A program made the position numbers and the translations under genes. Positions 3,550-25,400 of a stretch of DNA of 32,000 nt are shown in pieces. The stretch's first letter is position 1; every line of letters begins with the position of its first letter. The notes beneath the pieces are model-generated. The model was not told the origin of the DNA and did not search any database. It saw only the letters and a program-made list of their open reading frames with translations. The stretch is from Candidatus Saccharimonadota bacterium (GTDB lineage: Bacteria > Patescibacteriota > Gracilibacteria > BD1-5 > UBA6164). The stretch is from positions 990,001-1,022,000 of the forward strand of contig OZ245768.1 in assembly GCA_965227835.1 (NCBI GenBank), read 5' to 3'.

Positions 3550-3695
3550 AAGTTTAAAGTTGTTACATATTTCACAATTTTGTTTTGAATATCATACTAT
3601 GTATATTCTATCTTCCCTTTTTTCTAATTCTTATCTTTTGATTTCTCAGTTTTTTGTTTGATATTCAATTCATACTTCTTCCAGAGTTTTTAAAC
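3550..3695 (-). pseudogene. Terminal remnant of a toxin junction segment (third, truncated cassette)
   Basis: The minus strand reads TLEEVGIEYQTKNGEIKR*, then ...LEKREDRIYIVGYSKQNCEICNNFK.... This is homologous to 8209-8370, 13101-13262 and (at protein level) 20383-20545. It carries an in-frame TAA and loses homology near 3550. Confidence 0.5.
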
Positions 3696-5178: not shown

Positions 5179-5796
5179 GTAAATATCTACCAGTAGAACT
5201 GGTAGCTTTAAATGGAAGCCCCTAGAAGGGGCTAAAATAGTTTTTACCAGTTTAAATCTAACTGATTTCCATCAATGGTTTTATCCTTATGTTGCTGATG
5301 TTGAACATAATTTTTTATCATATCCAAGTCAAGTCAAACTGTACTTACATAGTATCATCTACTCCAGAAATTCTTCGAGTACAGTCATTTCTTCTTACTA
5401 TGTTTGTTATGAAGTATTATTGCACTCTTTCATTTCAATCTTCACAGAATTTCTGCAACAGAGTATTTTGGAGATATCCTCAAAACGAGATGAACATGAT
5501 CTATCGTTATATTTCATTTTAATATCTCAAAATCATATCTCTTTGCAAGTTCATGAAATGTGTCTCGTATATCTTTTCTAACTGATTGAAAAAGTATTTT
5601 TTTTCGGTACTTTGGTACCACCACTATGTGGTAAGTGCAGTCCCAATTCACATGGGACTGCTTTGCGTATTTGTGGGACATATCTTTAAAAAGTTATTCC
5701 CCTCCTAGGTGCTTCCTAGAAGATTATACACAACTACCGGAACGGTAAAACCTCCACTACTCGCACCAGCAGAGCTGGTGGTTTAGTGTTGGATTA
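5179..5796 (-). mobile_element. IS200/IS605-family insertion sequence (618 bp)
   Basis: It is absent from the otherwise identical copy, where the empty site is atgattca|attatc at 10688/10689. There is no target-site duplication. Subterminal hairpins are present: agcccctagaaggggct (~5217-5233), ccagtagaactgg (~5190-5202) and caccagcagagctggtg (~5765-5781). It encodes a Y1 transposase. Confidence 0.85.
5244..5681 (-). CDS. tnpA: IS200-type Y1 (HUH) transposase TnpA, 145 aa
   Basis: Reads MSHKYAKQSHVNWDCTYHIVVVPKYRKKILFQSVRKDIRDTFHELAKRYDFEILKGNITIDHVHLVLRISPKYSVAEILGRLKGKSAIIL...FWSRGYYVSTVGLDLDMIKNYVQHQ.... It has the HxH and RGYY motifs. Four TGA codons fall on conserved Gly positions. Track ORF 5289..5522(+) is its antisense shadow. 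Confidence 0.9.
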
Positions 5797-5969
5797 ATTA
5801 TCTTTCTATAGTCTATGATGTTATTTGAATATTCAGCTTCTTTTGGAAAGTTATATAAATCTGATAATCTTAATACGCTATATAGTTTTCAGTCTTCAGA
5901 TTTATATAGATATCTTTGAACCCATATATTGTGTATTGAAAAAAACAAATCAAATTCAAATTCTGATAA

Positions 5970-6228
5970 TTAGAAACTCATACTTTCTTTGATTTTTTCT
6001 CACTTTTCATTCAACTTATAATCCGTAATATCAATCTTCTCTCCTTTTTTAATATTATAATTCTTATATTCTTCTAGTATACTATTTCTTTTATTTTCAT
6101 ATTCTTCTTTTAGATCATATAGTTCTTTTTTTATTCTTTTTCTTTTTCATCGTATTTTTTCCATTTCCGTATCAATTTGACTTGACTCAAAGATTCTGTG
6201 TATCTCGTTGAGTTTATTTGTATTGTTT
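5970..6228 (-). pseudogene. Nested remnant of a toxin linker plus a short alternative C-terminus (copy A)
   Basis: Reads NSTRYTESLSQVKLIRKWKKYDEKEKE*KKELYDLKEEYENKRNSILEEYKNYNIKKGEKIDITDYKLNEKGEKIKESMSF*. The first half is near-identical DNA to the linker inside 7101..8384 (INSTGYTEFLSQVKLIRKWKKYDEKEKELKKELYDLKEEY), with a TTA>TAA nonsense change. Confidence 0.45.
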
Positions 6229-7095
6229 ATATATATCTTCAGTCTCTTTTTCCCATTTCTCTATTCAATCTCTCCGGTCTCTTAACATCTCATAAAAATT
6301 ATCAAAATCTATCTTTATATCTTCTTTGTATAATCATATTACCCATATAAAATCTAAATGTTTCTTTGAAACTTTAAATCTTATCATACCTATATAAAAT
6401 TCAACTACATTTTTATCTCATTCTTTTACATCCTCTAATAATGAAATTATTTCTTGTATGTATAATAGGGATATGTCTTTCATATTTGTTACTATTTCAC
6501 AATAAAAACCTGTATGTGGATCCATTATATAACTGTCATTCTGCATACTATGAGATTTAAAGCCTAAATCTGGTTTTTGATTTTCATAATGAACTATTGC
6601 ATAGTCAATATGAAATATTTCAGGGGGTATCCATATATCTCCATCATATGATTCATTATATATAGATCTCTTACAAAAAGGTCATCCTTTTGTCTTTCAT
6701 GTCTCTTTTTCCCAAGCGTCTATATAGTCACTCCAATCTCTCATCATATGTAAAATATCTTCTATTTTTAAGTCTGTTACTATATAATCATCTGCATAAT
6801 TGTATGTAATAGTTACCTCAGAGTTAGGGTACTTTTCTCCATAATATCATTTTCATTTTTGATAACACCAAATTAATGTAGTTTCAAATCAAAATATAAA
6901 CTTCTCTCTCCTTCATTGACTCACTTCTTCAAGTTTACTTACTATCTCTCGAATGTCATATGATCATAGCTGGTTTAGTTCTGTATTTAATAAATAGGGA
7001 TCGTTACTTTCTTTCTCTTTTCAAATTCAATCTACCTTAATTTGAATAAATGGATTAACATTTGTTACAAAATAGTATTCAATTTTATTTAACAT
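6214..7095 (-). CDS. Putative cognate immunity protein of the EndoU-like orphan toxin (copy A, 293 aa)
   Basis: ATG at 7095, 5 nt after the toxin stop. Starts MLNKIEYYFVTNVNPFIQIKVDGIGKEK and ends ...DFDNFYEMLRDRRDGIEKWEKETEDIYKQYK*. No signal peptide. The immunity role is inferred from position only. Confidence 0.55.
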
Positions 7096-7100
7096 AATTT

Positions 7101-8384
7101 TTAATCAATAATAGGATAAAAAGTTCTTAATTCTTTTGTTCTCTCTATATATACAAACTCAATATTTATTCCATCAACTGTTGATGGTCACTTAAATATA
7201 TTTAAACCTAGTCAGGTAGCATTTGGGTCTGCTAATCCCTTATTATTTTCTATTGCATAAGTTACTTCATCTATAATCTTTTGCTTACTCCAGCTATCTG
7301 GGAAAAACGAAGAATTTCATACAGGTTTTCATCATTTTTTTGTTAAAGTATTATTATTTCCATAATCTATAACTACTTTTGCACTGTAAGGTTCATTCCA
7401 AGTATCAATTGATTTGTCTATATCTTCTAATTTAGCTACTCATTGTTGATTACTTTTGTTATAATGAGTTATTGCCTTTTGAGAATGAACTCAGTTGAAA
7501 GTTCAGTCTGACTTAAACTTAATCTCTACAATATGATCTATCTTTCATTCTACTTTCTTCCTTACATCTTTCACATATTTTACTCATTTGAATGATTTTT
7601 GTATAAGTGATTGTTCTCTTACTTTCTTCAAAAAATTCTCCAAACTCAATTTATCTTTCAATCTAACTATATCTTCTATATCGTCTAGCTTATATTCCTT
7701 AGCAACCTCTTTTGCTACTTCAAATATCTCTTCAATCTTCATTCATAGCTCTTTTCATAATTTCTCTAGAGATTTATTTAATAATTCTCTTGCTCATGAT
7801 CAACTTCATGCACCACTTGCTAATCATATTATTGTTAGAGTCTTTCAGAGTGTTCATAATTCATCACCTGTTATTGGATCTTTTCAGATAACTAGTGTTA
7901 ATATATCATATCACTCTCATACAATTGGGATTAGTGATACTATTATACTTGTTGTATTTCAATATTCTTCTTTTAGATCATATAGTTCTTTTTTTAATTC
8001 TTTTTCTTTCTCATCGTATTTTTTCCATTTCCGTATAAGTTTGACTTGACTCAAAAATTCTGTGTATCCTGTTGAGTTTATTTGTATTGTTTCTTGTTTT
8101 GTTGGTTGTTCTTTTGTTTTTGATTCAATGTTTGCTATGGATGTATTATCATATCTTGCTATTAATCTTTCTTTGTAATAGGTGATTTTGTTATTTCTTT
8201 TTATGTAGGGTTTAAAATTATTACATATTTCACAATTTTGTTTTGAATATCATACTATATATATTCCATCTTCCCTTTTTTCTAGTTTTTGTCTTTTAAT
8301 TTCTCAGTTTTTTGTTTGGTATTCAACTCACACTTCTTCCAGGGTTTCTGGGTCTGTGTTTATTTTGAATTTAAACTGGATTTT
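7101..8384 (-). CDS. Orphan toxin module A: junction segment, PT-TG-like domain and EndoU-like nuclease; no start codon
   Basis: A stop-to-stop frame of 427 codons. Junction segment: ...NTDPETLEEVGVEYQTKNGEIKRQKLEKREDGIYIVGYSKQNCEICNNFKPY.... Pre-toxin TG-like: ...SLIPIVGEGYDILTLVIGKDPITGDELGTLGKTLTIIGLASGAGSGSG.... Bacterial EndoU pattern: ...DHIVEIKFKSDGTFNGVHS...SSFFPDSWSKQKIIDEVTYAIENNKG...GPSTVDGINIEFVYIERTKELRTFYPIID*. The first in-frame ATG lies deep inside. Confidence 0.7.
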
Positions 8385-8776
8385 TTATAATCAAAATATC
8401 TTTTCATATAAAAAAATAATATTAGTGTGTGAATAATTGTTAATCAAATATAATAATAAAAATAATAATATGTTGTTGTATTTGGATGGTAGTTTAAATC
8501 AGACCAAACATCACTTATCAATAAAAAATAAAATATGTAATTAAAATATAAAGATATTTTAATTAAATATTTTTTATAAAAATATGTAATTAAAATATAA
8601 ACTATAAATACTATGGTAGTTTTTATTAATAGTGAAAATTCCATCATATCATATGATCTATAATAACTATAATCATTATCAAAATTATGCATTAACATAA
8701 GTATATAATAAATATTTAAACATAAATAACATATATATATAGAAATATTTAATATAATCTTTACAATTTTATTCAT
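8360..8776 (-). CDS. Hypothetical multi-pass membrane protein (138 aa)
   Basis: Track ORF 8444..8776 extends through TGA to TAA 8360-8362. Starts MNKIVKIILNISIYICYLCLNIYYILML and ends ...YYYIGLTIIHTLILFFYMKRYFDYKKSSLNSK*. Very hydrophobic and Tyr-rich. It occurs only between cassettes B and A. Confidence 0.5.
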
Positions 8777-8984
8777 ATATTTTATTTAATATATAATTAT
8801 AATTTTTAAAATATTTATAATATCCGCTTACTCTTTTTCAATATTTGATAGCTTTTTCGTCACATTCTCATCATTTTTTTACACAAGAAGGTCACCCATT
8901 CCAAGCTTTTCATATATTTTCTGCCGTTATTTCTTTTCACTCTTCTAATATTTTTCCCTTTATTACATTGATCCTATAATTCAT
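8769..8984 (-). CDS. Small hypothetical protein (71 aa)
   Basis: ATG at 8984. Reads MNYRINVIKGKILEEGKEITAENIGKAWNGGPSCVKKGGECDEKAIKYGKRVSGYYKYFKNYNYILNKIYE*. It overlaps both neighbours by a few nt and has no recognisable family. Confidence 0.35.
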
Positions 8985-9588
8985 TATCTTCAAATATAAA
9001 TCTAGGACTTTTTTTTAAATCTAATAGAATTTCTTGTTGTTCTTTTGGGAGATTTTTTAATTCATTTAGTGAATAAAAATTCATTATATCTTGTGTCAAA
9101 ATTCAAAATTGTTTTAGGTCTTCAAAGGTTTCGGGAGTGTTATATTTTTTTCACATAATATAATAAAATCAAGCATAGTAGATTCTTGAATTTTTAGACA
9201 TAGAAAAAAATTCTTCTCATACTGAAATTGTATTATAATCTAAATTGAAATAATATTCATCATATATATATATATATATATAATCTCCTTTATTAAAGGC
9301 TCATTTTAAATGCCAAGATAAGCACTTTCTATTTTCAGAGTTACATATAGAGTTATAACGTTCAACAGGATCAAGTCAAAATCATGGAATAATTCTTTCT
9401 CATATATGATATTTTCATATTTTTGAATATAATGTATCTATGTACATATTCTTTTCTAATTCTCGGTAATATTGTTCATCTTTATGTGATATATAATAAT
9501 ATCAAGCCAATAAAAATAAGGAAAATAAACATATTAATATTACAAATAATCTATTTAGCATTAAAGTAATTTTATTTATATCAAACAT
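8974..9588 (-). CDS. Hypothetical single-pass membrane protein (204 aa), cassette B; paralog of 3699..4271
   Basis: ATG at 9588. Starts MFDINKITLMLNRLFVILICLFSLFLLAGYYY (TM helix), continues ...GDYIYIYIYDEYYF... and ends ...TPETFEDLKQFGILTQDIMNFYSLNELKNLPKEQQEILLDLKKSPRFIFEDNEL*. Length is a multiple of 3. Confidence 0.55.
9262..9282. repeat. (AT)10 microsatellite inside a coding region
   Basis: A 21-nt perfect AT/TA run that encodes YIYIYIY in 8974..9588. The paralogous site at about 3950-3975 has an interrupted version. Confidence 0.8.
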
Positions 9589-9591
9589 ATT

Positions 9592-10206
9592 TTAATAAAT
9601 TTTTTCTAAAATTTCTAAATTCCAAAAATATGTTTTTCAATATCATATTTCTTCATAATAGCTTCACCATGAATTTAAAATATCTTTTAATAATCATTTA
9701 TATCATTGATTAGGACTATATGTAGGTATAAAATCATATTTATCTGTGATAAAAATTTTCATATAAACTCAACTATCATCAACAACTGGTTCCATAGTCC
9801 AAGTAACATGTCAAAATGAAAAATATAAGTCCCAATTTCTAGTAGAGTTTTCTGAGTCCTCAATTAAAACTCATTTTTCTATTTCATCTCAATTAAAGGA
9901 ATTATTTTTATAGAAATTTTCAAACTCTTGTTCTCTAATATTATACCAACTAGTTTTCTTAACTTCTTTTGTAATCCAGTGATAATTTCAATATTCTAAC
10001 TTACTACCATCTCAATATATGAACTTTGCAAGCATAGCTGACGATATTTTTAAATTCAATCATTTTCAAGCTATTCATACCAAATTTAACATTATGGTAG
10101 CTGAAACTTTTTTATGTGACTGGTCTAAATAATACCAATAACTATTTCAAGCTATTTTTATATCTCAACTATCATTAGCTAATCAAATATTATTATTATA
10201 AATTTT
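9592..10206 (-). CDS. Hypothetical protein, open frame with no ATG near its 5' end; paralog of 4283..4918
   Basis: Reads KIYNNNIGLANDSGDIKIAGNSYWYYLDQSHKK...YGDGSKLEYGNYHWITKEVKKTSWYN...YDFIPTYSPNQGYKGLLKDILNSWGSYYEEIGYGKTYFWNLEILEKIY*. The stop lies 3 nt before the next ATG. Confidence 0.4.
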
Positions 10207-10338
10207 TTAGATTGTTACTATTTATCTAGCTTAAAGATATACTCAAAAATAGCTAGAATGAATATCATAAATGTAAAATAAAAGAAATTAACATGAAATA
10301 TACATATCCATAAATAATTCCCATGTAAATAATAAAAA

Positions 10339-10554
10339 CTTAAATCTACCCAGTTTTTTGTATTTTATAGTTTATTTTTTACCTTTATATAAGTAAAAAC
10401 AGAGATTTTATATTGATTGAATTTTATAAAGATAAAGTTAGCTTAAATAAGTCATTTATAAAATACTAAAGATAAAACACTAAAAATAGCTTAATTTCCC
10501 TTTATTTAAAGTAAAATATAGGTATACTTTTTATAAAAAGTGGGTAGTTTTGAG
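10339..10554. mobile_element. MITE-like non-autonomous insertion (216 bp)
   Basis: It is absent from the identical copy, where the empty site is aataataaaaatatgatt at ~5041-5058. Imperfect terminal inverted repeats are cttaaatctaccca and tgggtagttttgag. It is flanked by a direct taaaaa at 10333-10338 and 10555-10560. It contains no ORF. Confidence 0.6.
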
Positions 10555-10594
10555 TAAAAATATGATTAATTTTCTAATTTTCATTTTAAAGTAA

Positions 10595-10861
10595 TTATTT
10601 AATTAGCTCCTTTATTTCTATAGTAAAATTATAAGTTTCTCCATCCAATTCAGTTTCATGGTAATATCACATTGAATTTAATGATTCAATTATCTTTCTA
10701 TAGTCTATGATGTTATTTGAATATTCAGCTTCTTTTGGAAAGTTATATAAATCTGATAATCTTAATACGCTATATAGTTTTCAGTCTTCAGATTTATATA
10801 GATATCTTTGAACCCATATATTGTGTATTGAAAAAAACAAATCAAATTCAAATTCTGATAA
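10595..10861 (-). CDS. Small open frame (about 88 codons, no ATG; possible TTG start); intact only in cassette B
   Basis: Reads ...FFSIHNIWVQRYLYKSEDGKLYSVLRLSDLYNFPKEAEYSNNIIDYRKIIESLNSMGYYHETELDGETYNFTIEIKELIK*. The cassette A copy is split by the IS200 insertion between ...RKII and ESL.... It is in frame with the upstream remnant, separated by a single TAA. Confidence 0.3.
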
Positions 10862-11120
10862 TTAGAAACTCATACTTTCTTTGATTTTTTCTCACTTTTC
10901 ATTCAACTTATAATCCGTAATATCAATCTTCTCTCCTTTTTTAATATTATAATTCTTATATTCTTCTAGTATACTATTTCTTTTATTTTCATATTCTTCT
11001 TTTAGATCATATAGTTCTTTTTTTATTCTTTTTCTTTTTCATCGTATTTTTTCCATTTCCGTATCAATTTGACTTGACTCAAAGATTCTGTGTATCTCGT
11101 TGAGTTTATTTGTATTGTTT
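10862..11120 (-). pseudogene. Nested toxin-linker remnant (copy B)
   Basis: Identical to 5970..6228 at an offset of 4892, including the same internal TAA. Confidence 0.45.
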
Positions 11121-11987
11121 ATATATATCTTCAGTCTCTTTTTCCCATTTCTCTATTCAATCTCTCCGGTCTCTTAACATCTCATAAAAATTATCAAAAT
11201 CTATCTTTATATCTTCTTTGTATAATCATATTACCCATATAAAATCTAAATGTTTCTTTGAAACTTTAAATCTTATCATACCTATATAAAATTCAACTAC
11301 ATTTTTATCTCATTCTTTTACATCCTCTAATAATGAAATTATTTCTTGTATGTATAATAGGGATATGTCTTTCATATTTGTTACTATTTCACAATAAAAA
11401 CCTGTATGTGGATCCATTATATAACTGTCATTCTGCATACTATGAGATTTAAAGCCTAAATCTGGTTTTTGATTTTCATAATGAACTATTGCATAGTCAA
11501 TATGAAATATTTCAGGGGGTATCCATATATCTCCATCATATGATTCATTATATATAGATCTCTTACAAAAAGGTCATCCTTTTGTCTTTCATGTCTCTTT
11601 TTCCCAAGCGTCTATATAGTCACTCCAATCTCTCATCATATGTAAAATATCTTCTATTTTTAAGTCTGTTACTATATAATCATCTGCATAATTGTATGTA
11701 ATAGTTACCTCAGAGTTAGGGTACTTTTCTCCATAATATCATTTTCATTTTTGATAACACCAAATTAATGTAGTTTCAAATCAAAATATAAACTTCTCTC
11801 TCCTTCATTGACTCACTTCTTCAAGTTTACTTACTATCTCTCGAATGTCATATGATCATAGCTGGTTTAGTTCTGTATTTAATAAATAGGGATCGTTACT
11901 TTCTTTCTCTTTTCAAATTCAATCTACCTTAATTTGAATAAATGGATTAACATTTGTTACAAAATAGTATTCAATTTTATTTAACAT
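11106..11987 (-). CDS. Putative cognate immunity protein of the EndoU-like orphan toxin (copy B)
   Basis: Same sequence as 6214..7095 at an offset of 4892. ATG lies 5 nt after the toxin stop. Confidence 0.55.
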
Positions 11988-11992
11988 AATTT

Positions 11993-13960
11993 TTAATCAA
12001 TAATAGGATAAAAAGTTCTTAATTCTTTTGTTCTCTCTATATATACAAACTCAATATTTATTCCATCAACTGTTGATGGTCACTTAAATATATTTAAACC
12101 TAGTCAGGTAGCATTTGGGTCTGCTAATCCCTTATTATTTTCTATTGCATAAGTTACTTCATCTATAATCTTTTGCTTACTCCAGCTATCTGGGAAAAAC
12201 GAAGAATTTCATACAGGTTTTCATCATTTTTTTGTTAAAGTATTATTATTTCCATAATCTATAACTACTTTTGCACTGTAAGGTTCATTCCAAGTATCAA
12301 TTGATTTGTCTATATTTTCTAATTTAGCTACTCATTGCTGGTTACTTTTATTATAATGAGTTATTGCCTTTTGAGAATGAACTCAGTTGAAAGTTCAGTC
12401 TGACTTAAACTTAATCTCTACAATATGATCTATCTTTCATTCTACTTTCTTCCTTACATCTTTCACATATTTTACTCATTTGAATGATTTTCGTATAAGT
12501 GATTGTTCTCGTACTTTCTTCAAAAACTTCCCCAAACTCAACTTATTCTTCATTTTCACTATATCTCCTATATCATCCAGTTTATATTCCTTAGCAATCT
12601 CTTTTGCTACTTCAAGTATCTCTTCAATCTTCATTCATAGCTCTTTTGATAATTTCTCTAGAGATTTATTTAATAATTCTCTTGCTCATAATCAGCTTCA
12701 TGCACCACTTGCTAATCATATTATTGTTAGAGTCTTTCAGAGTGTTCATAATTCATCACCTGTTATTGGATCTTTTCAGATAACTAGTGTTAATATATCA
12801 TATCACTCTCATACAATTGGGATTAGTGATACTATTATACTTGTTGTATTTCAATATTCTTCTTTTAGATCATATAGTTCTTTTTTTAATTCTTTTTCTT
12901 TCTCATCGTATTTTTTCCATTTCCGTATAAGTTTGACTTGACTCAAAAATTCTGTGTATCCTGTTGAGTTTATTTGTATTATTTCTTGTTTTGTTGGTTG
13001 TTCTTTTGTTTTTGATTCAATGTTTGCTATGGATGTATTATCATATCTTGCTATTAATCTTTCTTTGTAATAGGTGATTTTGTTATTTCTTTTTATGTAG
13101 GGTTTAAAATTATTACATATTTCACAATTTTGTTTTGAATATCATACTATATATATTCCATCTTCCCTTTTTTCTAGTTTTTGTCTTTTAATTTCTCAGT
13201 TTTTTGTTTGATATTCAACTCATACTTCTTCCAGAGTTTTTGGGTTTGTGTTTATTTTAAATTTAAATCCTCATATTATTTCATCTATTAGGTTTTCTAT
13301 GAAGTATTCTATTTCTATTAGATTTTTTTCTTCATTCGTGGTTTCTTTGGTATTTTCATTTTTTCCCTCTTCATCACTATCTTTTCAACTCTCAAGATTC
13401 TCTCATCATAACACTTTCAATAAAACACTTTCCTTATTTCATTCTCTATCTTCCATTCATATTATAACTTCTCATACTTCTATAGCCTTTATCTCAATAT
13501 AGTTTGTTTCAAAATAATTTACTGGGTTGCTACTATACTTTTTATATAATAATGCCTTATTATTAGTCTTGGTTAATTGTATGTGTCAGTTACTTTCATA
13601 TATTGGAAGTAGATATTTTTCTCAGATTTCTAGTTCTAATTCTTTATCTCTTTGAGAGATTACTAGATTTGTGTCTTTTATTTCAACTTCTATTTTTGCT
13701 TCTTGTCCGTATTTATCAAATATCTTTGCTTTGGTTTCTCATTTCTTTTTTCCTTTGATTTTTATTTCTCAGTCTTTGTCTACATCAAAATATATTATTT
13801 CTTCGTTGTATTCTCAATTTTTGTATCATCATCATCAGTCTAGTATTTTTCATTGGTATTTCTCATTTTCTTTTAATACTACTTTGTTTTTGTCTAACTT
13901 TATTTTAGGGGTTTTGTCTTTTATCTTTACTTTGAATTTAATCCGTTTCAAACATCTTTT
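11993..13960 (-). CDS. Orphan toxin module B: two Ig-like repeats, junction segment, PT-TG-like domain and EndoU-like nuclease; no start codon
   Basis: A stop-to-stop frame of 655 codons that opens directly after TAA 13961-13963. It begins ...KVKIKDKTPKIKLDKNKVVLKENEKYQGKILDGGGGYKNGEYNEEIIYFDVDKDGEIKIKGKKKGETKAKIF.... This stretch is near-identical DNA to 20820-21280 of the full-length toxin. From 13267 down it matches module A. Confidence 0.7.
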
Positions 13961-14017: not shown

Positions 14018-14554
14018 CTATGAAAATCTCTCAAGGTTATTCATTCTTTTCAATCTCGTTTTTTTAACGATCCCAGTCATTTTCGTATAAAGTAAATAAT
14101 ACTCACAGCATTTCAAAACTCTCTCTCTAGTATCATCAAAAGAAAGCCATTCTCTCTTTATATCCTCTATAGCTTGCTTTGATTCTTCTTGTGTATATTC
14201 TTTTGATTTTACTAATTTATATTCTTTTAAATTTTCTCAATCTTTTTCTAATTCATGATATAATATTTTTATTTTCAATTTCCCATCTCTGAGTAAAGGA
14301 TAGAGATAGTCTAGGGTAAGGTCTAGTTGTTTTTCTCTATTGTATTTAATCTTTTCATACTCTTTATCTGTTATATTTTCTCACCAAAATTCATTTAATC
14401 ATACTGAATATTTATTTTCATATAAATCATAAACTACTACTGCTCTTCTTTCCTTGAATGAAAATCAGTCGCATATTCAATGTCTATCTATTATTTCATT
14501 TCAGTATCAATCTTTCGGAATTATTAGTCAATTAGTGTAAGCTTTTTTTAACAT
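14018..14554 (-). CDS. Array paralog 1 (putative immunity protein, 178 aa)
   Basis: Starts MLKKAYTNGLIIPKDGYGNEIIDRHGICDGFSFKERRAVVVYDLYENKYSVGLNEFW (N-type a). Contains ...LDLTLDYLYPLLRDGKLKIKILYHELEKDGENLKEYKLV... (short middle). (CT)5 at 14119-14128. Ends ...YYLLYTKMTGIVKKTRLKRMNNLERFS* inside the conserved box. Confidence 0.65.
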
Positions 14555-14566
14555 ATTAAAATATTT

Positions 14567-15235
14567 CTATTTAGGTAATAAAAATTTTATCTCACTAGGT
14601 CAATCTATTCATCATTCTTTCAATAAATCCATAGTAACTTCATGTCTATACCCAGCTTCTCTCACCTGCTTATCACTACTGTGAAAATCTCTCAAGGTTA
14701 TTCATTGCTTTCAGTTTCGTTTTTTTAACAATCCCATTCGTTTTCGTATAAAGTAAATAATACTCAACACATCTCAAAACTCTCTCTCTCTAGTATCTTT
14801 AATAGAAAGCCATTTTTTCTTAATATCTTCTATTACTTTTTGAGACTCTTTTTTAGTATACTCTGTATCATAAATCCAAGCTCAATCCCAATTAGAGTCC
14901 TGTAAGGAATTTTCAAAGTATTGCCTCCACCAATCATTAAGAGGGTTCTGTAATTCTTTTTTTAAATCTTTCTTAGTTTTTAAAAGTTTTTTAGTTTTTA
15001 CTTTCAACTTTCCATCTCTGAGTAAAGGATAGAGATAGTCTAGGGTAAGGTCTAGTTGTTTTTCTTCTGGTATTCTATTATATGTTCCTTTCGGCATATC
15101 ACATAACCAAAATTCATTTAATCATTTTGAATATTTATTTTCATATAAATCATATAAAAAATATTCTATTCATTCTTTATCTGTAAATCACTCTGTTATT
15201 CAATATATATCTTTTATGTCTTTTATTTTTTTCAT
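14567..15235 (-). CDS. Array paralog 2 (222 aa), frame-shifted into the toxin-tail frame
   Basis: Starts MKKIKDIKDIYGITEGFTDKEGIEYFLYDLYENKYSKGLNEFW (N-type b), with the long middle segment (track ORF 14882..15097 is part of it). (CT)6 at 14780-14791 makes the ORF continue as ...GITLRDFHSSDKQVREAGYRHEVTMDLLKEGGIDGPSEIKFLLPK*. Confidence 0.6.
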
Positions 15236-15369
15236 AATTCTATTGATTAGGAAGTAAAAACTTTATTTCAATCCCTTCTCATCTTAATTTTTGTAGTTTT
15301 CAATCTTTCCACTTCAACAAATCTATAGTAACTTCATGCTTAAACCCAGCATCATTCACTTGCTTATCA

Positions 15370-15975
15370 CTACTGTGAAAATCTCTCAAGGTTATTCACT
15401 CTTTTCAATCTCGTTTTTTTAACGATCCCATTCATTTTCATATAAAGTAAATAATACTCAAGACATCTCAAAACTCTCTCTCTAGTATCTTTAATAGAAA
15501 GCCATTTTTTCTTAATATCTTCTATTGCTTTTTGAGACTCTTTTTTAGTATACTCTGTATCATAAATCCAAGCTCAATCCCAATTAGAGTCCTGTAAGGA
15601 ATTTTCAAAGTATTGCCTCCACCAATCATTAAGAGGGTTCTGTAATTCTTTTTTTAAATCTTTCTTAGTTTTTAAAAGTTTTTTAGTTTTTACTTTCAAC
15701 TTTCCATCTCTTAATAAGGGATATAAATATACCAATGTAAGATCTAGTTGTTTTTCTCTATCATCTTTAATCTTTTCCCATTCTTCACCTGTTATATTTT
15801 CTCACCAAAATTCATTTAATCATACTGAATATTTATTTTCATATAAATCATAAACTACTACTGCTCTTCTTTCCTTGAATGAAAATCAGTCGCATATTCA
15901 ATGTCTATCTATTATTTCATTTCAGTATCAATCTTTCGGAATTATTAGTCAATTAGTGTAGGCTTTTTTTAACAT
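15370..15975 (-). CDS. Array paralog 3 (201 aa)
   Basis: N-type a (MLKKAYTNG...), long middle (...KVKTKKLLKTKKDLKKELQNPLNDWWRQYFENSLQDSNWDGAWIYDTEYTKKESQKAIEDIKKKWLSIKD). (CT)5 at 15474-15483. Ends ...NNLERFSQ*. Confidence 0.65.
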
Positions 15976-16096
15976 ATTAAAATATTTCTATTTAGGTAAT
16001 AAAAATTTTATCTCACTAGGTCAATCTATTCATCATTCTTTCAACAAATCTATAGTAACTTCATGCTTAAACCCAGCATCATTCACTTGCTTATCA

Positions 16097-16588
16097 CTAC
16101 TGTGAAAATCTCTCAAGGTTATTCATTGATTTCAGTTTCGTTTTTTTAACGATCCCATTCGTTTTCGTATAAAGTAAATAATACTCAACACATCTCAAAA
16201 CTCTCTCTATAGTATCATCAAAAGAAAGCCATTCTCTCTTTATATCCTCTATAGCTTGCTTTGATTCTTCTTGTGTATATTCTTTTGATTTTACTAATTT
16301 ATATTCTTTTAAATTTTCTCAATCTTTTTCTAATTCATGATATAATATTTTTATTTTCAATTTCCCATCTCTGAGTAAAGGATAGAGATAGTCTAAAGTT
16401 AACAATAATGCTTCTTCTTCTGATATTCTATTATATGTTCCTTTCGACATATCACATAACCAAAATTCATTTAATCATTTTGAATATTTATTTTCATATA
16501 AATCATATAAAAAATATTCTATTCATTCTTTATCTGTAAATCACTCTGTTATTCAATATATATCTTTTATGTCTTTTATTTTTTTCAT
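16097..16588 (-). CDS. Array paralog 4 (163 aa)
   Basis: N-type b (MKKIKDIKDIYG...), short middle. (CT)4AT at 16201-16210, which has the same length as (CT)5. Ends ...NNLERFSQ*. Confidence 0.65.
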
Positions 16589-16757
16589 AATTCTATTGAT
16601 TAGGAAGTAAAAACTTTATTTCAATCCCTTCTCATCTTAATTTTTGTAGTTTTCAATCTTTCCACTTCAATAAATCCATAGTAACTTCATGTCTATACCC
16701 AGCTTCTCTCACTTGTGTATCACTACTATGAAAGTCTCTCAAGGTTATTCATTGATT

Positions 16758-17315
16758 TTAGTTTCGTTTTTTAACGATCCCAGTCATTTTCGTATAAAGT
16801 AAATAATACTCAAGACATCTCAAAACTCTCTCTCTAGTATCTTTAATAGAAAGCCATTTTTTCTTAATATCTTCTATTACTTTTTGAGACTCTTTTTTAG
16901 TATACTCTGTATCATAAATCCAAGCTCAATCCCAATTAGAGTCCTGTAAGGAATTTTCAAAGTATTGCCTCCACCAATCATTAAGAGGGTTCTGTAATTC
17001 TTTTCTTAAATCTTTCTTAGTTTTTAAAAGTTTTTTAGTTTTTACTTTCAACTTTCCATCTCTTAGTAAAGGATAGAGATAGTCTAGGGTAATGTCTAGT
17101 TGTTGTTCTCTATTATCTTTTATTTTCTCCCATTCCTCTTGAGTTATGGTACTATTCATAAAATAATTTAGTCACACCGACTGTTTATTCCAATACAAAT
17201 CATAAATAGTTACAATCTTACCATTTTCCTCATCCACAGAAAATCAATCACAAATACCATAAATATCTTTGATTCTTTCTTTTTCTAAAAATTTTTTAAA
17301 GTTATTATCCTCCAT
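16758..17315 (-). CDS. Array paralog 5 (185 aa)
   Basis: Starts MEDNNFKKFLEKERIKDIYGICDGFSVDEENGKIVTIYDLYWNKQSVGLNYF (N-type d), long middle (contains track ORF 16926..17159). (CT)5 at 16826-16835. A T6 rather than T7 run gives the earlier end ...GIVKKRN*. Confidence 0.65.
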
Positions 17316-17479
17316 AACACATATTATTGTTTAGGTAATATAAATTTTACTTCTTTTACCTTTCCAAATTCTCACTTATTGTTTGTCTTCAACAAATCCA
17401 TAGTAACTTCATGTCTATACCCAGCTTCTCTCACCTGCTTATCACTACTGTGAAAATCTCTCAAGGTTATTCATTGATT

Positions 17480-18049
17480 TTAGTTTCGTTTTTTAACGAT
17501 CCCAGTCATTTTCGTATAAAGTAAATAATACTCACAGCATTTCAAAACTCTCTCTCTAGTATCTTTAATAGAAAGCCATTTTTTCTTAATATCTTCTATT
17601 ACTTTTTGAGACTCTTTTTTAGTATACTCTGTATCATAAATCCAAGCTCAATCCCAATTAGAGTCCTGTAAGGAATTTTCAAAGTATTGCCTCCACCAAT
17701 CATTAAGAGGGTTCTGTAATTCTTTTCTTAAATCTTTCTTAGTTTTTAAAAGTTTTTTAGTTTTCACTTTCAATTTCCCATCTCTGAGTAAAGGATAGAG
17801 ATAGTCTAGGGTAATGTCTAGTTGTTTTTCTCTATTATATTTAATCTTTTCATACTCTTTATCTGTTATATTTTCTCACCAAAATTCATTTAATCATACT
17901 GAATATTTATTTTCATATAAATCATAAACTACTACTGCTCTTCTTTCCTTGAATGAAAATCAGTCGCATATTCAATGTCTATCTATTATTTCATTTCAGT
18001 ATCAATCTTTCGGAATTATTAGTCAATTAGTGTAAGCTTTTTTTAACAT
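17480..18049 (-). CDS. Array paralog 6 (189 aa)
   Basis: N-type a, long middle. (CT)5 at 17548-17557. T6 run, so it ends ...GIVKKRN*. Confidence 0.65.
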
Positions 18050-18205
18050 ATTAAAATATTTCTATTTAGGTAATAAAAATTTTATCTCACTAGGTCAATC
18101 TATTCATCATTCTTTCAATAAATCCATAGTAACTTCATGTCTATACCCAGCTTCTCTCACCTGCTTATCACTACTGTGAAAATCTCTCAAGGTTATTCAT
18201 TGATT

Positions 18206-18757
18206 TTAGTTTCGTTTTTTAACGATCCCAGTCATTTTCGTATAAAGTAAATAATACTCAAGACATCTCAAAACTCTCTCTCTAGTATCTTTAATAGAAA
18301 GCCATTTTTTCTTAATATCTTCTATTACTTTTTGAGACTCTTTTTTAGTATACTCTGTATCATAAATCCAAGCTCAATCCCAATTAGAGTCCTGTAAGGA
18401 ATTTTCAAAGTATTGCCTCCACCAATCATTAAGAGGGTTCTGTAATTCTTTTCTTAAATCTTTCTTAGTTTTTAAAAGTTTTTTAGTTTTCACTTTCAAT
18501 TTCCCATCTCTGAGTAAAGGATAGAGATAGTCTAGGGTAATGTCTAGTTGTTTTTCTCTATTATATTTAATCTTTTCATACTCTTTATCTGTTATATTTT
18601 CTCACCAAAATTCATTTAATCATACTGAATATTTATTATAGTATAACCTATATACAGTAACAATGATTCTATCTTTATCTGTGAATCAAGAACATATACC
18701 ATGAAAATCTTTTATTCACTTTTTTTCTAAAAATTCATTCAATTCATTATCTATCAT
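18206..18757 (-). CDS. Array paralog 7 (183 aa)
   Basis: Starts MIDNELNEFLEKKGIKDFHGICSGFTDKDRIIVTVYRLYYNKYSVGLNEFW (N-type c), long middle. (CT)5 at 18274-18283. Ends ...GIVKKRN*. Confidence 0.65.
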
Positions 18758-18934
18758 AATTCTATTTGTTAGGAAGTAAAAATTTCACCTCCTTTTCAAT
18801 TGGTTTTAACTCTCACTTATTGTTTGTCTTCAACAAATCCATAGTAACTTCATGCTTAAACCCAGCTTCTCTCATTTGTGTATCACTACTGTGAAAATCT
18901 CTCAAGGTTATTCATTCTTTTCAGTTTCGTTTTT

Positions 18935-19411
18935 TTAACGATCCCATTCATTTTCATATAAAGTAAATAATACTCAACACATCTCAAAACTCTCTCTCTC
19001 TCTAGTATCATCAAAAGAAAGCCATTCTCTCTTTATATCCTCTATAGCTTGCTTTGATTCTTCTTGTGTATATTCTTTTGATTTTACTAATTTATATTCT
19101 TTTAAATTTTCTCAATCTTTTTCTAATTCATGATATAATATTTTTATTTTCAATTTTCCATCTCTGAGTAAAGGATAGAGATAGTCTAGGGTAATGTCTA
19201 GTTGTTGTTCTCTATTGTCTTTAATCTTTTCCCTTTCTTCATCTGTTATATTTTCTCACCAAAATTCATTAAGTCATATTGAATATTTATTATAGTATAA
19301 CCTATATACAGTAACAATGATTCTGTCTTTATCTGTGAATCAAGAACATACACCATGAAAATCTTTTATTCACTTTTTTTCTAAAAATTCATTCAATTCA
19401 TTATTTATCAT
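18935..19411 (-). CDS. Array paralog 8 (158 aa), immediately downstream of the full-length toxin
   Basis: ATG at 19411, 4 nt after the toxin stop. Starts MINNELNEFLEKKGIKDFHGVCSGF (N-type c), short middle. (CT)7 at 18990-19003 puts the 3' end in the third frame, ending ...RERESFEMCGVLFTLYENEWDR*. Confidence 0.6.
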
Positions 19412-19415
19412 AATT

Positions 19416-22400
19416 CTATTTGTTAGGAAGTAAAAATTTCACCTCCTTTTCAATTGGTTTTAACTCTCAATTATTGTTTGTCTTCAACAAATCTATAGTA
19501 ACTTCATGCTTAAACCCAGCATCTCTCACTTGTGTATCACTACTATGAAAATCTCTCAAAGTTATTCATTCTTTTCAATCTGGAGATGTATACCTATAAA
19601 CACTTCATTTATTTGATGGCTTTTTTTCTCACTTCCACCCCTTAGTTTCTAAACTTTTCATTACACCTTCAACTCCTTCCTTATCTCACAATACCTTCAC
19701 TGCTCATCATTCTAATCATTTAACCTTATCTAATCAATCGACCTTTTCTAAATCCTGAGCCACTTTTAATATATCATCAACTCAAGTTATATCCTTAAAT
19801 TTACTTGCTATAAATCAAGACCTTCATGTAGACCTTACCCTCTTCACAACCCTCTCACTACTCTTAGCTCATTTCAGTTTTCCGGGTCATACAAACATCA
19901 AACTAGAACTCACTCATACATATCATTCTATCCATTGTATATTATAGGATGTAAGATATTCTTTATAACCCTCATACTCATTATATACTTCCTCTATTTG
20001 ATTATATAATTCTCATAATCATTCTTTCGCTTTCTCCCAATCTTCTTCTGCTGTTCTTTCTCAAGTTATATATCCATATAGTATTTTTCAGCTTCATTTT
20101 AACAAATTTATTATATCTTTTGGGGTATCTTGTAATTCTTCTATCGTGTCTTTTATTGCTTCTTTACTTCAATCTATATATCATTGATTATCTGTTTTTA
20201 TTTCTCTTATCTTCTTTTTTATATTATAGAATTTTTCTTTTGTTTCTTCTACATATTCTTGTACTCAGCTTATTTCTAGGTTTTCTTCTTTGTTTTTAGT
20301 ATTTGTAGTTCTTATTCTATTATCTGCAAATGAGAGGTATGTATTGGTGTTATAGTATGTTGTAGTATTGTTTGTGTCTATGAAGTATGGTTGAAATTCG
20401 TTGTAACAGTTTATACATATTTCTTTGTCTAATCAGAGTATATATATTCAGTCTTCTTCTTTTTCTAGTTTTTCTCTTACATGATTTCAATTTTCTCATT
20501 TGTATTGTATTCATATTTCTTTTAGGGTTTCTGGGTTTCAAGTTATTTCAAAGTATAGGCTTGATAGTCAATCAATACTTGTATTTGATGAATATTGGAG
20601 GTTAGTGAATTTTGAGGTTTGAGGTTCTTCTCAGTTACTTTCATTTCACTCTTTTTCATTATCTTCTATTTCTTCTTCATTATTCTCATCTCATTTCTCC
20701 TCCTCTCCTTCTCACTTATCTTCTCATCATAACACTCTCAATAACACACTTTCCTTATTTCATTCCCTATCTTCCATTCATATTATAACTTCTCATACTT
20801 CTATAGCCTTTATCTCAATATAGTTTGTTTCAAAATAATTTACTGGATTGCTACTATACTTTTTATATAATAATGCCTTATTATTAGTCTTGGTTAATTG
20901 TATGTGTCAGTTACTTTCATATATTGGAAGTAGATATTTTTCTCAGATTTCTAGTTCTAATTCTTTATCTCTTTGAGAGATTACTAGATTTGTGTCTTTT
21001 ATTTCAACTTCTATTTTTGCTTCTTGTCCGTATTTATCAAATATCTTTGCTTTGGTTTCTCATTTCTTTTTTCCTTTGATTTTTATTTCTCAGTCTTTGT
21101 CTACATCAAAATATATTATTTCTTCGTTGTATTCTCAATTTTTGTATCATCATCATCAGTCTAGTATTTTTCATTGGTATTTCTCATTTTCTTTTAATAC
21201 TACTTTGTTTTCTTTTAATTTTATTTTGGGGGTTTTGTCTTTTATCTTTACTTTGACTATGCTTATTATATCTCAACTTTGATATATATATAGTTCTGTT
21301 TCTCATTTGGTTTTTCATATTATAGAGAATTTTTCATAATTAGTTCTTTTCCCGTTTTCCCATATTCTTTGTTTACTTATTTGTATTATTTCCGGATTTG
21401 TTGTTGAGAATGTATAGTCTTTATTTATTTCTTGTTTGAATGATTCGCATGTTATTCATATTGGTACTTCGCATTCATATGTTCTTGGGGGTTTAGGTTT
21501 TATTGTTATTTCTAGTATGTGGCTTATGTAGTCTCAATCATAGGATTTTACATATATATTTGAAGTTCAGCTTAGTTTTCATTCTAGTTTTATTTTATTT
21601 TTTGTTCAGTTTATTTCTATTATGTTGGGTCTTGAATTGTTATAATAGTATCATCTGTTTTCTATTTTAAATAAGCAACTTTTTCATACTTCTGTTTCAC
21701 ATTTGTGTATTCTTGGGTTTGGAACTGGTTTTACTTTTACATTCCATATTTTCCTTAGTCATTTTCAACTTTTGTATATCTTTATTTTTGTTGTTCAGGC
21801 TTTTTTTCAGCATATTCAGTTTATTTTTTCCGTTTCTCAAGCTACTCTTTTTTTTATTCACCATTCAACACTAGCTATACCACTATTATCTGGCTTAAAG
21901 TTATAATCATCTCTATACCATGTTTTTATACAATCTGTTTCATTTAGGGTAAAATTTTCCTCACTTGCTTTGGATATTATTTTTATTTCATATCTTGGCC
22001 ATTTCCTTCAATCTTTTTCATTTATGTATATTGTTGATTCTCAAATTTTATCAGGATCTATATACACTGTATCCTTTCATACTCTAAGTCTGTAATCAAA
22101 TAATCATAAATTATCTGATTTTATGTCATAGTTGTCTACATTTTCTGGTAATATTAATTTTTGGGTGGCTCATACCTCCATTTCTATTTTGTATTTTTTA
22201 AATGGGGGTTTAGGTATTATTGTTATTTTATAGGTCTTTTTATTTCTTCATAAGGAATCTTTTACATAAATTTCTGTTTCTCATCATACTTGTCATCTTA
22301 TGTATGTTTTTTTATCATGAGGTCTTCTTTTTATACTAGTAAAATGGTTATTACTGGTTATTTTGTGTCAAGGTGAAATATATTCTAGTATTTCATCTCA

Positions 22401-25400
22401 TTGATAAATTGTTCTTGTTTCTATTTCTGGAGGATCTGTTATTATATTTATATCTAATATGTGCCTGACTACTCAATCACCACCTGATAAGTAATATTTT
22501 ATCTTTCAAAATAGGTTTCATCTAAATTTCATTACTTTAAAATAATGATTGTATTCAAGTTTAGACATTGATTTTACACTATGTTCTCACTCAACTGAAT
22601 AGCTGTAATATGTGTTACCTATTCAATATATATTTATATATGTTCATTCTTTTATGTTTAGAGTATGGATTTTTGGTTCTGGTAAGGGTATTATTTTTAC
22701 TTTATGATTAGCAACATGATATCACCTAGTTTTCACATATAATTCTAATTCTCAATCCTTTTTTCATGTAATACAATAACCTTTTTCATATATTTCTAAT
22801 TCAGCTAATTCTTCATTATTCGTGGAATATTCAGTTTCTATTCATACTTCTATACATTTCCTCTTTGAATTATATACCTCAAATACTTTTTCTTCTATTT
22901 TTGGATGCACCATTATATCTATAGTATATAGATGTATATTTTGATCATATACTCTATATCTTACTTTTCAGGGGGTTTTTCATAAAAGTTTTATATCCCA
23001 ATTTTTTTGATGTGTTTCTATTTCTCAACCATCTAGCCTGTCATAATAAAATTTAAGATCCCTTCAATTAGTTTTAACTACTAAATCAGAGTATTCTCAT
23101 TGTTTAATATTTAAATCATATTGTATTACCTCAGGGGCTGGTTTTATTATTAGTTTAATTATATATTTATTTGATACTCTTATATATGCTGTTCATATTT
23201 CTTTTGCTCTTATTGTGAAATCGCGATATCCCTTAGATAAATCTACCAAACTATTACTCGATATAGAGTAATTTTCGCTGTAAGCTTTTTTTAGGTATCT
23301 TTTGTATGCTTGTCATTTATAAATTTCTATTTCAAATGTAGGTGGAGGAGTTATGGTAAGCTTTAATATATATTGTAAATATCAATTTTTATCTGATACT
23401 TTAATATTTACAGTTCAAACTTTTTTTGCACTTAAAATATATTGATCCTCTCTAGTTCAAATACTTATTATATCATTATTAGATACTTCATATTTATGGT
23501 TTCGAGCATTTTTTAGATTTACTATTGAATTCTTTCATTCTTGTAATGAAATATTTTTAATTTCTACAGGTTTTATGTTTAACTTTAGAGTATATATATG
23601 TATATTTTGTCTATTTTTAATTTTTACATACAAAGTTCCAACTTTTTTTGTAAGTAAATGATAATAGTCACCTCCTTTAGAAAAACTAGCTAAGCTCCTA
23701 TCCGATAATTCATATCTATATATCCAAGTAGCCGGTAATTTCTCAGAGTGTTTTTTTCAAACATTGATGCTTCTATCAAAAACAGGAATTCATTTTATAC
23801 TAAGACTGACTTTATGATCTGTATGGCTACGACGAGGATCTGTTATTTTTATAGTAACATTTCAAGCTTTTCTAGCATATATACGAAATGACCTTCTTAT
23901 TTTTTTTATTTCTACTAAACTAGGATTTGATACTTGAATTCTTTTGTATGAATGAACAAAATAATAATTTCAAACTGTTATACTTTTATATTTAGTAGGA
24001 AGGTATCTATTTATACTAATTCAATCTGTTTGCTCTTCTTGAAATGTTTCAGGTTCTATAATTAATTCCTCTCATAAATCATCGTTTTCTTCTAACATAT
24101 CTCCATTTTCTTCTTTTATTTTTTCATTTTCTTCAAACTCTTTTATGTATAATTCTTTTTCTTGATTTTTATCTTCTAGATTATCTTCTCAAAGACTGTT
24201 TATTTCTATATTTCATGTTTCATCATTTAAAAAACTATTTTTCTCTATTTCTTCTAACTCTTCTTGACTTATAATTCATGGTTTTATTTCTTCTACTTCA
24301 TTTCGTTTCATTAATTCTTCTAGCTCTTCTTCACTTAATTCTAACTCATAGTTACTCTTAGAACCATCAGAAAAATTATTTATTTCAAGTCAGCCATCCT
24401 CGTAATTTTCTATAATTTCTATTTCTTCTTTTTTTATCTCTCATATTTCTGAATTGTTATTTTTAAGATAATCTAGCATTTCTTTTTCTTCTTCACTGCT
24501 CAATTTTTCTTCGTCTTGATTATCTTTTTCATTTATTTTTTCAAATTTGAGGAACTCTATACTACTTTTTTCATCATTTCAAATATTTTCATCTAAATTA
24601 TTTATTTTTATTCAATTTTCCTCTTCTATAATCAACTCCTTATCATAAAAGTCATTTATTCTCTCTAGTTTTACTTCTTTGTTTTCTAGCTTTTCTCATA
24701 ATTCTAAACCTCATGAAAAACCATTTATAATCTCATTTGGATTATAATTTTTTACTTCTAACTCTTGGAAGTTTTCTTCTGTGTATAAACCATTATTTTC
24801 TCAAGTATTATTTATCTCTAGTCATTTTTCTGCTCAATCTATATACAATTCTTTTGTATGTTTCAATTCATCTATTTTTTCTTCTATTTCAATTTCCACA
24901 TTTTTAAATCATTCTAAACCTAGTTCTTCTTCATTTATTTCTAGTTTTTCTTCCTTTTTTCATAGCTCATATTCTTCTAAAAACAAATCTTTAAGATCTT
25001 GTTTTTGATTATTATTTATTTCTACTCATTTCTCTGCTCAATCTATATACAATTCTTGCATTTTATTTTCAAGCTCAGGAGAATTTTCTAAAAAAGTTTT
25101 TTCTTCTATTTCTTCATTCTCATAAAAATCTTGAGATATATCTTTATAGTTAAAATCCTTTCACACAGGTATTCAGTGCGTTATTTTTTCACTATTTAAT
25201 TCAGTATTTCAAATATCATTTATTTCTATATTTTTTATTTCTACATTTTCATCAAAATACCTGTCTCAAAAAATACCATCAAATTTCTTTGATTCTTCTT
25301 TTATTAGTTCTAATTTTTCTAATTCTCCATATGTAAATATAGATTTATTTTCTTTGTAATTTTGATTTATTTCTAAATTTTCCTTAGAGTTTAAAAAATT

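Follow-up and report, generated by a model that had tools for sequence, protein, structure and literature searches.

Orphan EndoU toxin and predicted immunity cassettes at a likely polymorphic-toxin locus of a code 25 Gracilibacterium

Background

Orphan toxin cassettes are textbook features of the contact-dependent growth inhibition (CDI) and Rhs systems of Proteobacteria. The cdiA-CT/cdiI and rhs-CT/rhsI orphans are fragments without start and export signals that are viewed as displaced ancestral toxin tips, and in Salmonella an Rhs orphan becomes armed when it recombines with its main gene (PMC3150448, PMC3967940, PMC9086364). A stretch of 32,000 nucleotides (positions 990,001 to 1,022,000 of contig OZ245768.1, here called the window) was analysed with respect to two open reading frames (ORFs) of this kind, orphan 1 (11993..13960, 655 codons) and orphan 2 (7101..8384, 427 codons), both start-less, both ending in a predicted EndoU RNase and both followed by a partner gene. 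Unless marked otherwise, features lie on the minus strand. The best explanation, which is considered likely, is a polymorphic-toxin locus of a Gracilibacterium using genetic code 25, in which the orphan tips were displaced or duplicated from a main toxin gene (19416..27518) and could be re-armed by recombination.

Gracilibacteria are tiny bacteria presumed to be host-dependent. The literature searched yielded no account of polymorphic toxin loci in Gracilibacteria, of the associated immunity genes or of orphan arrays. In the paper on the gracilibacterial genome CP042461, subtilisin, peptidase S8 and immunity genes are not mentioned, and the word 'toxin' occurs three times, with reference to other proteins. 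Among the processing proteases of Sec-dependent polymorphic toxins, subtilisin has been named (Zhang et al., PMC3482391), and an S8-associated polymorphic toxin system has been characterised in S. aureus, with S8 described as an associated secreted peptidase (PMC13556192). As a principle, orphan cassettes are familiar from CDI and Rhs; what is new here is the scaffold, the family of immunity genes and the lineage of the host.

Structure and domains of the orphan modules

Each of the two orphan ORFs opens right behind a TAA stop codon, and the first in-frame ATG is codon 169 of orphan 1 and codon 215 of orphan 2. The first-pass annotation, which was made from the letters of the window, had described ORFs of 655 and 427 codons with long ATG-free openings; this was borne out, with 168 and 214 codons free of ATG, under code 25 only. 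Orphan 1 comprises a copy of scaffold repeats (13935..13401), an acidic linker, a pre-toxin domain, a PT-TG domain (12850..12692, aa 371-423) and an EndoU domain (12433..12002). Orphan 2 opens at the pre-toxin domain and continues with PT-TG (7958..7770, aa 143-205) and EndoU (7541..7110), PT-TG being N-terminal to EndoU in both modules. The earlier assignment of these two domains to the 3' parts was confirmed by profile searches, in which PF14449 (PT-TG) was matched with 36.0 bits by orphan 1 and 37.1 bits by orphan 2 (Pfam gathering score 23.5) and PF14436 (EndoU_bacteria) with 52.3 and 53.6 bits (gathering score 25.3), profile positions 5-128/129 being covered.

The predicted catalytic residues, taken from alignment, are His512 and His528 in orphan 1 and His284 and His300 in orphan 2. 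The latter pair is kept in 4/4 aligned full-length EndoU domains (from the window, from CP042461 and from a contig of the Gracilibacteria genome MAG-139), and one Lys and one Ser (in SSFFPD) are invariant in 6/6 aligned EndoU sequences of Gracilibacteria. Like the EndoU tips CdiA-CT STECO31 (PDB 5HKQ; PMC9086364) and MafB EndoU of Neisseria (PMC4287609), the domain matches Pfam EndoU_bacteria, forms the C-terminal tip and is followed by a predicted immunity gene. The conserved His residues are spaced by 16 residues here and by 17 in STECO31 (H187, H204), and the invariant Lys and Ser lie downstream. Unlike the known EndoU tips, it has no sequence-level match to any solved structure: neither a sequence search nor a subsequent profile search with the EndoU part gave a match in PDB.

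The stretch 13935..13401 of orphan 1 corresponds to 21256..20722 of the main gene with 98.3% identity over 535 bp in a self-BLAST, and its residues 9-186 correspond to residues 2093-2270 (ORF numbering) of the main protein, which form the last two Ig-like repeats. Orphan 2 shares just ~75% identity over ~105 bp with the main gene at the DNA level. The earlier statement that the 5' parts are DNA-level copies of the last repeats of the toxin therefore holds for orphan 1 and fails for orphan 2. In neither orphan was a hydrophobic signal-peptide stretch seen at the N-terminus when the translations were judged by eye.

Both ORFs are genuine orphan cassettes of a toxin tip and a predicted immunity gene, i.e. 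spare or displaced tips. They resemble orphan cdiA-CT and rhs-CT (Poole 2011, PMC3150448; Koskiniemi 2014, PMC3967940) in being tip fragments downstream of a main gene without start or export signal, in having kept sequence similarity to the main gene's 3' part (535 bp in orphan 1, weakly in orphan 2) and in being followed by a predicted immunity gene of their own. Moreover, as in those systems, identical tips occur on full-length proteins in other strains, and the fragments would become armed through a crossover into the main gene.

Opposite both orphans an antisense ORF of 237 codons is open (7465-8178 and 12357-13070, plus strand). These ORFs are probably a by-product of codon bias, and ORF length alone is therefore weak evidence in this genome.

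Genetic code and start codons

The window has a GC content of ~25%. With translation table 11 almost no ORFs were obtained, and with TGA as a sense codon 38 long ORFs appeared, mostly on the minus strand. TGA stands at the invariant Gly of the Walker A motif (GPSGSGKST), of the ABC signature (LSGG) and of DEPTG, as well as at the invariant Gly of the subtilase motifs DTG, GHGTH and SGTSMA. In the main gene TGA is the dominant Gly codon (157 TGA vs 38 GGN). The genome of the window uses code 25 (TGA = Gly). Table 11 was rejected because it leaves next to no ORFs in the window, and code 4 (TGA = Trp) because TGA falls on invariant Gly positions. The orphan ORFs are visible solely with TGA as a sense codon, because table 11 breaks them, and all window proteins were translated under code 25 for the profile searches.

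It could be objected that the entire pattern is an artefact, with a mis-assembled repeat or a wrong genetic code creating false ORFs, given that the two copies of the module are 98.8-100% identical over 2.6 kb and that the ORFs vanish under table 11. This is highly improbable: the copies differ in their flanks, only one of them carries an insertion sequence (IS), and the 30 substitutions between them lie in clusters; the conserved Gly positions prove code 25, and the same genes are present on independent contigs from other samples.

The records of relatives are labelled Candidatus Gracilibacteria. In the public protein collection (P0001, P0002, P0003) Trp is found at every TGA, e.g. IPIVWEWYD for IPIVGEGYD. 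Such Trp-for-Gly translations weaken profile matches and homology searches across the whole lineage, and in practice neither code 11 nor code 4 gives a readable locus.

Of the start codons assigned in the window, 20/20 are ATG, each being the first in-frame ATG of its ORF, and for this reason the missing ATG in the orphans is meaningful. The leaders of these genes are A/T-rich and without a Shine-Dalgarno sequence, with the IS transposase as the sole exception. The absence of an early ATG from the orphans, as first described, stood, and the term start-less required a correction: in-frame non-ATG candidates exist at codon 4 of orphan 1 (TTG, 13951) and codon 18 of orphan 2 (GTG, 8333). In an alternative explanation, the orphans would be ordinary, independently translated genes, starting at this TTG and GTG or at an internal ATG (codon 443 at 12634 in orphan 1, codon 215 at 7742 in orphan 2) and producing a cytoplasmic or otherwise exported EndoU paired with an antitoxin, like a toxin-antitoxin module. 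A public gene caller did use TTG and GTG, which resulted in products of 652 aa and 410 aa with Trp in place of Gly; the internal ATG of each copy falls exactly between PT-TG and EndoU; and no terminator-like site was found between the orphans and their upstream genes. Nevertheless, this explanation is improbable, since all assigned starts are ATG codons behind A-rich leaders and the leader of GTG 8333 has 52% GC, since the products would open inside an Ig repeat or the pre-toxin domain with no hydrophobic signal stretch by eye, and since the same sequence is the C-terminus of a 2.7-kaa protein in a related strain. A promoter scan of the window was uninformative, with 69 sites found vs 75 expected in A/T-rich DNA.

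A full-length relative and the origin of the orphans

A search with the partner protein retrieved a 290-aa relative on a contig of the European Nucleotide Archive (ENA), here called L001. This contig carries the orthologous locus of a related strain, as the upstream radical-SAM-like gene (a label taken from a CxxxCxxC motif in the translation alone) is 99% and the toxin 5' region 93.6% identical. In L001 a full-length protein with S8 domain and Ig-like repeats ends in the acidic linker, pre-toxin domain, PT-TG and EndoU that are also present in orphan 1, and the partner gene follows 5 nt on; a full-length toxin carrying this EndoU end, for which the first-pass annotation had proposed a search, was thus found. 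Orphan 1 and its partner (13405-11079) show 94.9% DNA identity to L001 7382-9723. Orphan 1 is a chimera, being like the scaffold of the window in 13935..13401 and like the end of the L001 main gene from 13405 on, and the last repeats of L001 are too diverged from those of the window for alignment at the DNA level. The L001 locus is the decisive comparison, and together with the chimeric pattern it marks orphan 1 as a probable former main-gene end.

In a simulated crossover within the 535-bp repeat, 7,321 bp were deleted and an uninterrupted in-frame protein of 2734 aa with the architecture of the L001 protein was obtained. The proposal that the modules are reserve cassettes recombinable onto the scaffold is supported for orphan 1 by this crossover and by L001, and does not extend in its direct form to orphan 2, which has no usable tract. 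An observation on L001 itself is a 1-nt deletion (GG to G) at ~1647, which splits the EndoU-tipped gene into ORFs of 295 and 2395 codons and represents either a sequencing error (the contig has 6.8x coverage) or a real inactivation.

In the simplest history, the ancestor of the window would have carried EndoU on the main gene, which would encode a Sec-exported protein with an N-terminal subtilase, ~12 Ig-like repeats and an exchangeable C-terminal tip, followed by immunity genes. A new tip with its immunity array would then have been inserted, displacing the EndoU end downstream and leaving 535 bp of scaffold as a direct repeat. The orphans would represent tips of pre-toxin domain, PT-TG and EndoU RNase without ATG start or export signal, each coupled to a normally startable immunity gene. 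If the direct 535-bp copies underwent RecA-type recombination, 7.3 kb would be lost and an exported EndoU toxin would be restored. In this history orphan 2 would be a recently duplicated or gene-converted copy of the module of orphan 1 that does not recombine directly with the main gene. The fragments are presumably silent, the tip would be an active toxic RNase which the partner neutralises, and switching would occur.

Orphan 2 lies inside a long repeat, in which 5792-8375 corresponds to 10683-13267 at 98.8% identity. The 30 differences between orphan 1 and orphan 2 all fall within the toxin ORF (15 synonymous, 15 non-synonymous); they are clustered and mosaic relative to L001. Over ~1300 bp, comprising the partner gene and ~420 bp downstream, 0 differences were found between the copies. 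This distribution indicates that orphan 2 is a very recent duplicate of the orphan 1 module with gene conversion among alleles. A 138-aa ORF (8360-8776), very A/T-rich, rich in Tyr and Ile and apparently membrane-spanning, occurs only between the two repeat units and overlaps the opening of orphan 2 with its last 25 nt; it may be spurious or another immunity-type gene.

Further pieces of such modules were identified in the locus. A frameshifted remnant (10966..11120) of the stretch just upstream of PT-TG follows directly after partner gene 1 and has a twin at 6074..6228; it is ~90% identical to 12830-12984 and 7938-8092, and its translation contains a frameshift and stops. A 140-bp fragment of the pre-toxin domain (3552..3691) at the far end of the locus shows 93.6% identity to 13102-13241 and 97.9% to L001 7546-7685. 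Such decayed remnants show that unused pieces of the locus do rot.

These remnants bear on a further explanation, in which the orphans are functionless relics of tip replacement that never switch, only the immunity genes being selected as protection against the EndoU of neighbours. In line with it, other pieces are decaying (the remnant 11120..10966, the fragment 3691..3552 and a 103-aa EndoU stub on the MAG-139 contig L003), the partner genes are identical and properly started with ATG, the recency of the duplication is enough to explain an intact orphan 2 without selection, and orphan immunity genes have been considered to be under selection of their own (review, PMC9086364). However, orphan 1 has stayed open for 655 codons despite ~5% DNA difference from L001, with a dN/dS of 0.19 outside the variable loop patch described below, it keeps a 98.3% identical tract of 535 bp in the same orientation and in frame that is ideal for recombination, and the mosaic differences among orphan 1, orphan 2 and L001 show that the copies recombine. 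The relic explanation is therefore regarded as unlikely, and displaced or duplicated tips that could be re-armed are preferred.

Several points weigh against this preferred reading. The dN/dS of 0.19 is a value for the pair of orphan 1 and L001 that is compatible with purifying selection and not assignable to the orphan lineage alone. No recombinant junction was observed, and the TTG at codon 4 and the GTG at codon 18, as well as the internal ATG codons just ahead of EndoU, could permit some translation of the presumably silent orphans. A long tract homologous to the scaffold is missing from orphan 2, which hence cannot switch directly and whose intactness may only reflect its youth. Additionally, the tip of the main protein gave no profile match above threshold, and the family was seen in just a handful of loci.

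The partner gene

Partner gene 1 (11106..11987) and partner gene 2 (6214..7095) each encode 293 aa and start with ATG 5 nt past the stop codon of the respective orphan, in agreement with the initial description; the two copies are identical in DNA. The protein is an internal tandem of two ~130-aa domains (internal repeat with E 1e-5), each half ends in ...MxRDxxDxIxxWEKET, and variation between strains is limited to the first domain. In an exhaustive HMMER search the partner retrieved 15 proteins, mostly of 115-140 aa, matching its N-terminal half, so that its relatives elsewhere are single-domain proteins of this size. Many of these have unusually many Trp residues at positions expected to be Gly (FWFE, KWKW), apparently an artefact of code 4 translation as in P0001. 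No convincing Pfam family was found for them, two members having weak, unrelated matches with E above 0.02.

Genes of the partner family adjoin EndoU genes in four independent loci (L001, L002, L003 and L011, the last being CP042461). Between the window and L001 the EndoU domain, in orphan 2 numbering, is identical except for residues 289-297 (9 substitutions and a 5-aa indel), a variable loop located between the conserved H284 and H300 and encoded at 7494-7520 and 12386-12412 (L001 8470-8515). In the partner protein, 28/37 differences between the window and L001 are within residues 59-105, encoded at 11673-11813 and 6781-6921 (L001 ~8990-9125). The concentration of the divergence in the toxin loop and the partner patch fits a cognate toxin/immunity interface. 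From its position, its recurrence beside EndoU and this co-variation, the partner is predicted to be an EndoU immunity protein. Its sequence places it in an unnamed family that sits beside EndoU genes in other Gracilibacteria including CP042461, whereas the EndoU partners listed elsewhere are SUKH, Imm28 and SuFu (PMC3482391); the partner matches no Pfam or NCBIfam family. Besides protecting against the own tip, the immunity genes would probably also shield against EndoU-armed sister strains. As the variants of window and L001 differ almost only in two short patches, they provide a ready system for studying specificity.

The main toxin gene in comparison with known systems

The main gene (19416..27518) encodes 2700 aa from the ATG at 27518. 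The protein consists, in this order, of a signal peptide, Peptidase_S8 (Pfam E 2e-52), acidic repeats, ~12 Ig-like repeats (matching T2SS-T3SS_pil_N), an acidic linker, a pre-toxin domain of ~65 aa and the tip. The tract shared with orphan 1 (20722..21256) covers the last two of the Ig-like repeats. PT-TG was not reported by Pfam in the main protein. The tip reached 23.5 bits against DUF7028, under the gathering score of 27, and a HicA match was also sub-threshold; the tip was therefore left unnamed.

Unlike CDI proteins, the main protein contains only Peptidase_S8 and Ig-like repeats according to Pfam, with no TPS or FHA domain, and no candidate cdiB was seen beside the locus in the ORF map (the flanking genes were outside the Pfam search). 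Unlike Rhs proteins, it has no RHS/YD match, and neither PAAR nor a type VI secretion system (T6SS) was found. The locus thus belongs to neither the CDI nor the Rhs family, its scaffold being built of signal peptide, subtilase and Ig-like repeats, and the tip is demarcated by a lineage-specific pre-toxin domain and PT-TG instead of VENN or PxxxxDPxGL. The host differs as well, being a code 25 bacterium of the candidate phyla radiation that probably lacks an outer membrane.

The locus resembles Sec-dependent and S8-associated systems in signal-peptide export and in the combination of an S8 peptidase with a polymorphic RNase toxin and an immunity gene, and by analogy the protease would be expected to release or activate the tip; release by the S8 domain would be the corresponding step here. 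In contrast to the S. aureus system as described, S8 is fused in cis to the N-terminus of a giant protein and is not an associated peptidase. In contrast to the Firmicutes S8/BetaH-toxin system, Pfam finds no BetaH-type domain, and Ig-like repeats and orphan arrays are present. The S8-associated system of Firmicutes can thus be regarded as a functional analogy only, to which the locus would not be assigned.

Related loci in other Gracilibacteria

The closed genome CP042461 (L011) of Ca. Gracilibacteria 28_42_T64 encodes a protein of >1978 aa that combines Peptidase_S8 with an EndoU tip, and a partner homologue lies directly behind it. On contigs of MAG-139 (L003/L009) a start-less EndoU ORF of 380 aa is followed 3 nt on by a partner homologue, and L003 additionally carries the 103-aa stub of EndoU and the end of a toxin whose tip is CdiA_C. 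On L002 the end of a toxin gene specifies a 'Cytotoxic' tip like that of colicin E3, and a small EndoU-like protein is encoded between partner homologues. Both L003 and L002 hold just the 3' ends of their toxin genes. The pre-toxin stretch of the main protein of the window is homologous to that of L002 (E 4e-8), and divergence sets in right after it. In L008 (Gracilibacteria MAG-60) a main Ig-repeat protein is followed by three start-less orphans, each with a small gene behind it, the first two beginning with copies of the last Ig repeats of the scaffold.

The tips on the scaffold hence differ: the window carries an unclassified tip, L001 and L011 carry EndoU, and among the further contigs L003 carries CdiA_C and L002 Cytotoxic. 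As far as the sequences of these loci tell, the tip is the polymorphic part of the system, and arrays of orphans with this design are found repeatedly in the lineage. For L004-L006 (P0009) no usable context was available, the gene being located at the contig edge. A scan of a genome-contig collection with orphan 1 (the source genome was not among the genomes), and a scan of the JGI metagenomes with the module alignment, gave no relative, and a word-indexed protein search with scaffold and tip returned the protein of L001 only.

In the small EndoU-family protein of L002 (1922-2407, 161 aa), which has an apparent signal peptide by eye, Tyr occupies the two catalytic His positions; this variant may be inactive or may have been repurposed.

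Further features of the locus

On the minus strand the main gene is followed by an eight-gene array, orphan 1 with its partner, the remnant, another start-less ORF with its gene, orphan 2 with its partner and the IS element; the far end of the locus contains a second copy of the other start-less type and then the 140-bp pre-toxin fragment.

The array (14018..19411) consists of eight paralogous small genes of 158-222 aa with ATG starts at 19411, 18757, 18049, 17315, 16588, 15975, 15235 and 14554. Each of them is followed by a copy of the last ~45 codons of the toxin, the remnant GITLRDFHSSD...KFLLP occurring 9 times, from which it follows that the array grew by repeated duplication of 'toxin end + small gene'. 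The array genes are presumed to be immunity genes for the current main tip. One of them (15235..14567) reads through into the toxin-end remnant, and the paralogues are mosaics in which N-terminal and middle segments have been shuffled. No significant Pfam or NCBIfam match was obtained for the array genes, the partner or the small start-less ORFs, the only matches being weak ones of one array gene, far below the cut-offs.

The second type of start-less ORF is present at 9592-10338 and 4283-5050 (204 and 211 codons), starting with KIYNNNIGLANDSGDIKIAGN. The genes behind these ORFs (8974-9588 and 3699-4271) encode products with a hydrophobic N-terminus, apparently membrane-spanning by eye. The two copies share 99% identity over the 5' 204 bp, and the remainder and the downstream gene are <=73% identical, which on sequence grounds is the pattern of conserved junction and variable tip of another toxin family. 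A full-length gene for this type was not present in the window, and no Pfam or NCBIfam match was found.

An IS200/IS605-type insertion (5179..5791; tnpA 5681..5244, Pfam Y1_Tnp E 9e-35) is present only in the second repeat copy; its limits were taken from self-BLAST, and hairpins are located at 5734-5780. Its Y1 transposase of 145 aa contains TGA-Gly codons and is the only gene of the window with an AGGAGG-like leader. Two direct repeats of 133 bp (27753-27885 and 27906-28038, 87% identical) are located in the intergenic region just upstream of the main gene. No tRNA genes were found in the window.

Conclusions

Taken across the loci, a lineage-wide polymorphic toxin system, hitherto undescribed, can tentatively be proposed, at somewhat less than even confidence, in which a self-processing S8/Ig-repeat surface protein carries swappable RNase tips, silent orphans keep repeat handles, and an immunity family, sometimes tandem-duplicated, co-diversifies with the inter-His loop of EndoU; it might serve strain warfare or the killing of host cells. 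If the system is active, the partner would define a new family of EndoU immunity proteins, and the locus would mean that reduced, recoded bacteria invest in interbacterial weaponry that is switched by recombination.

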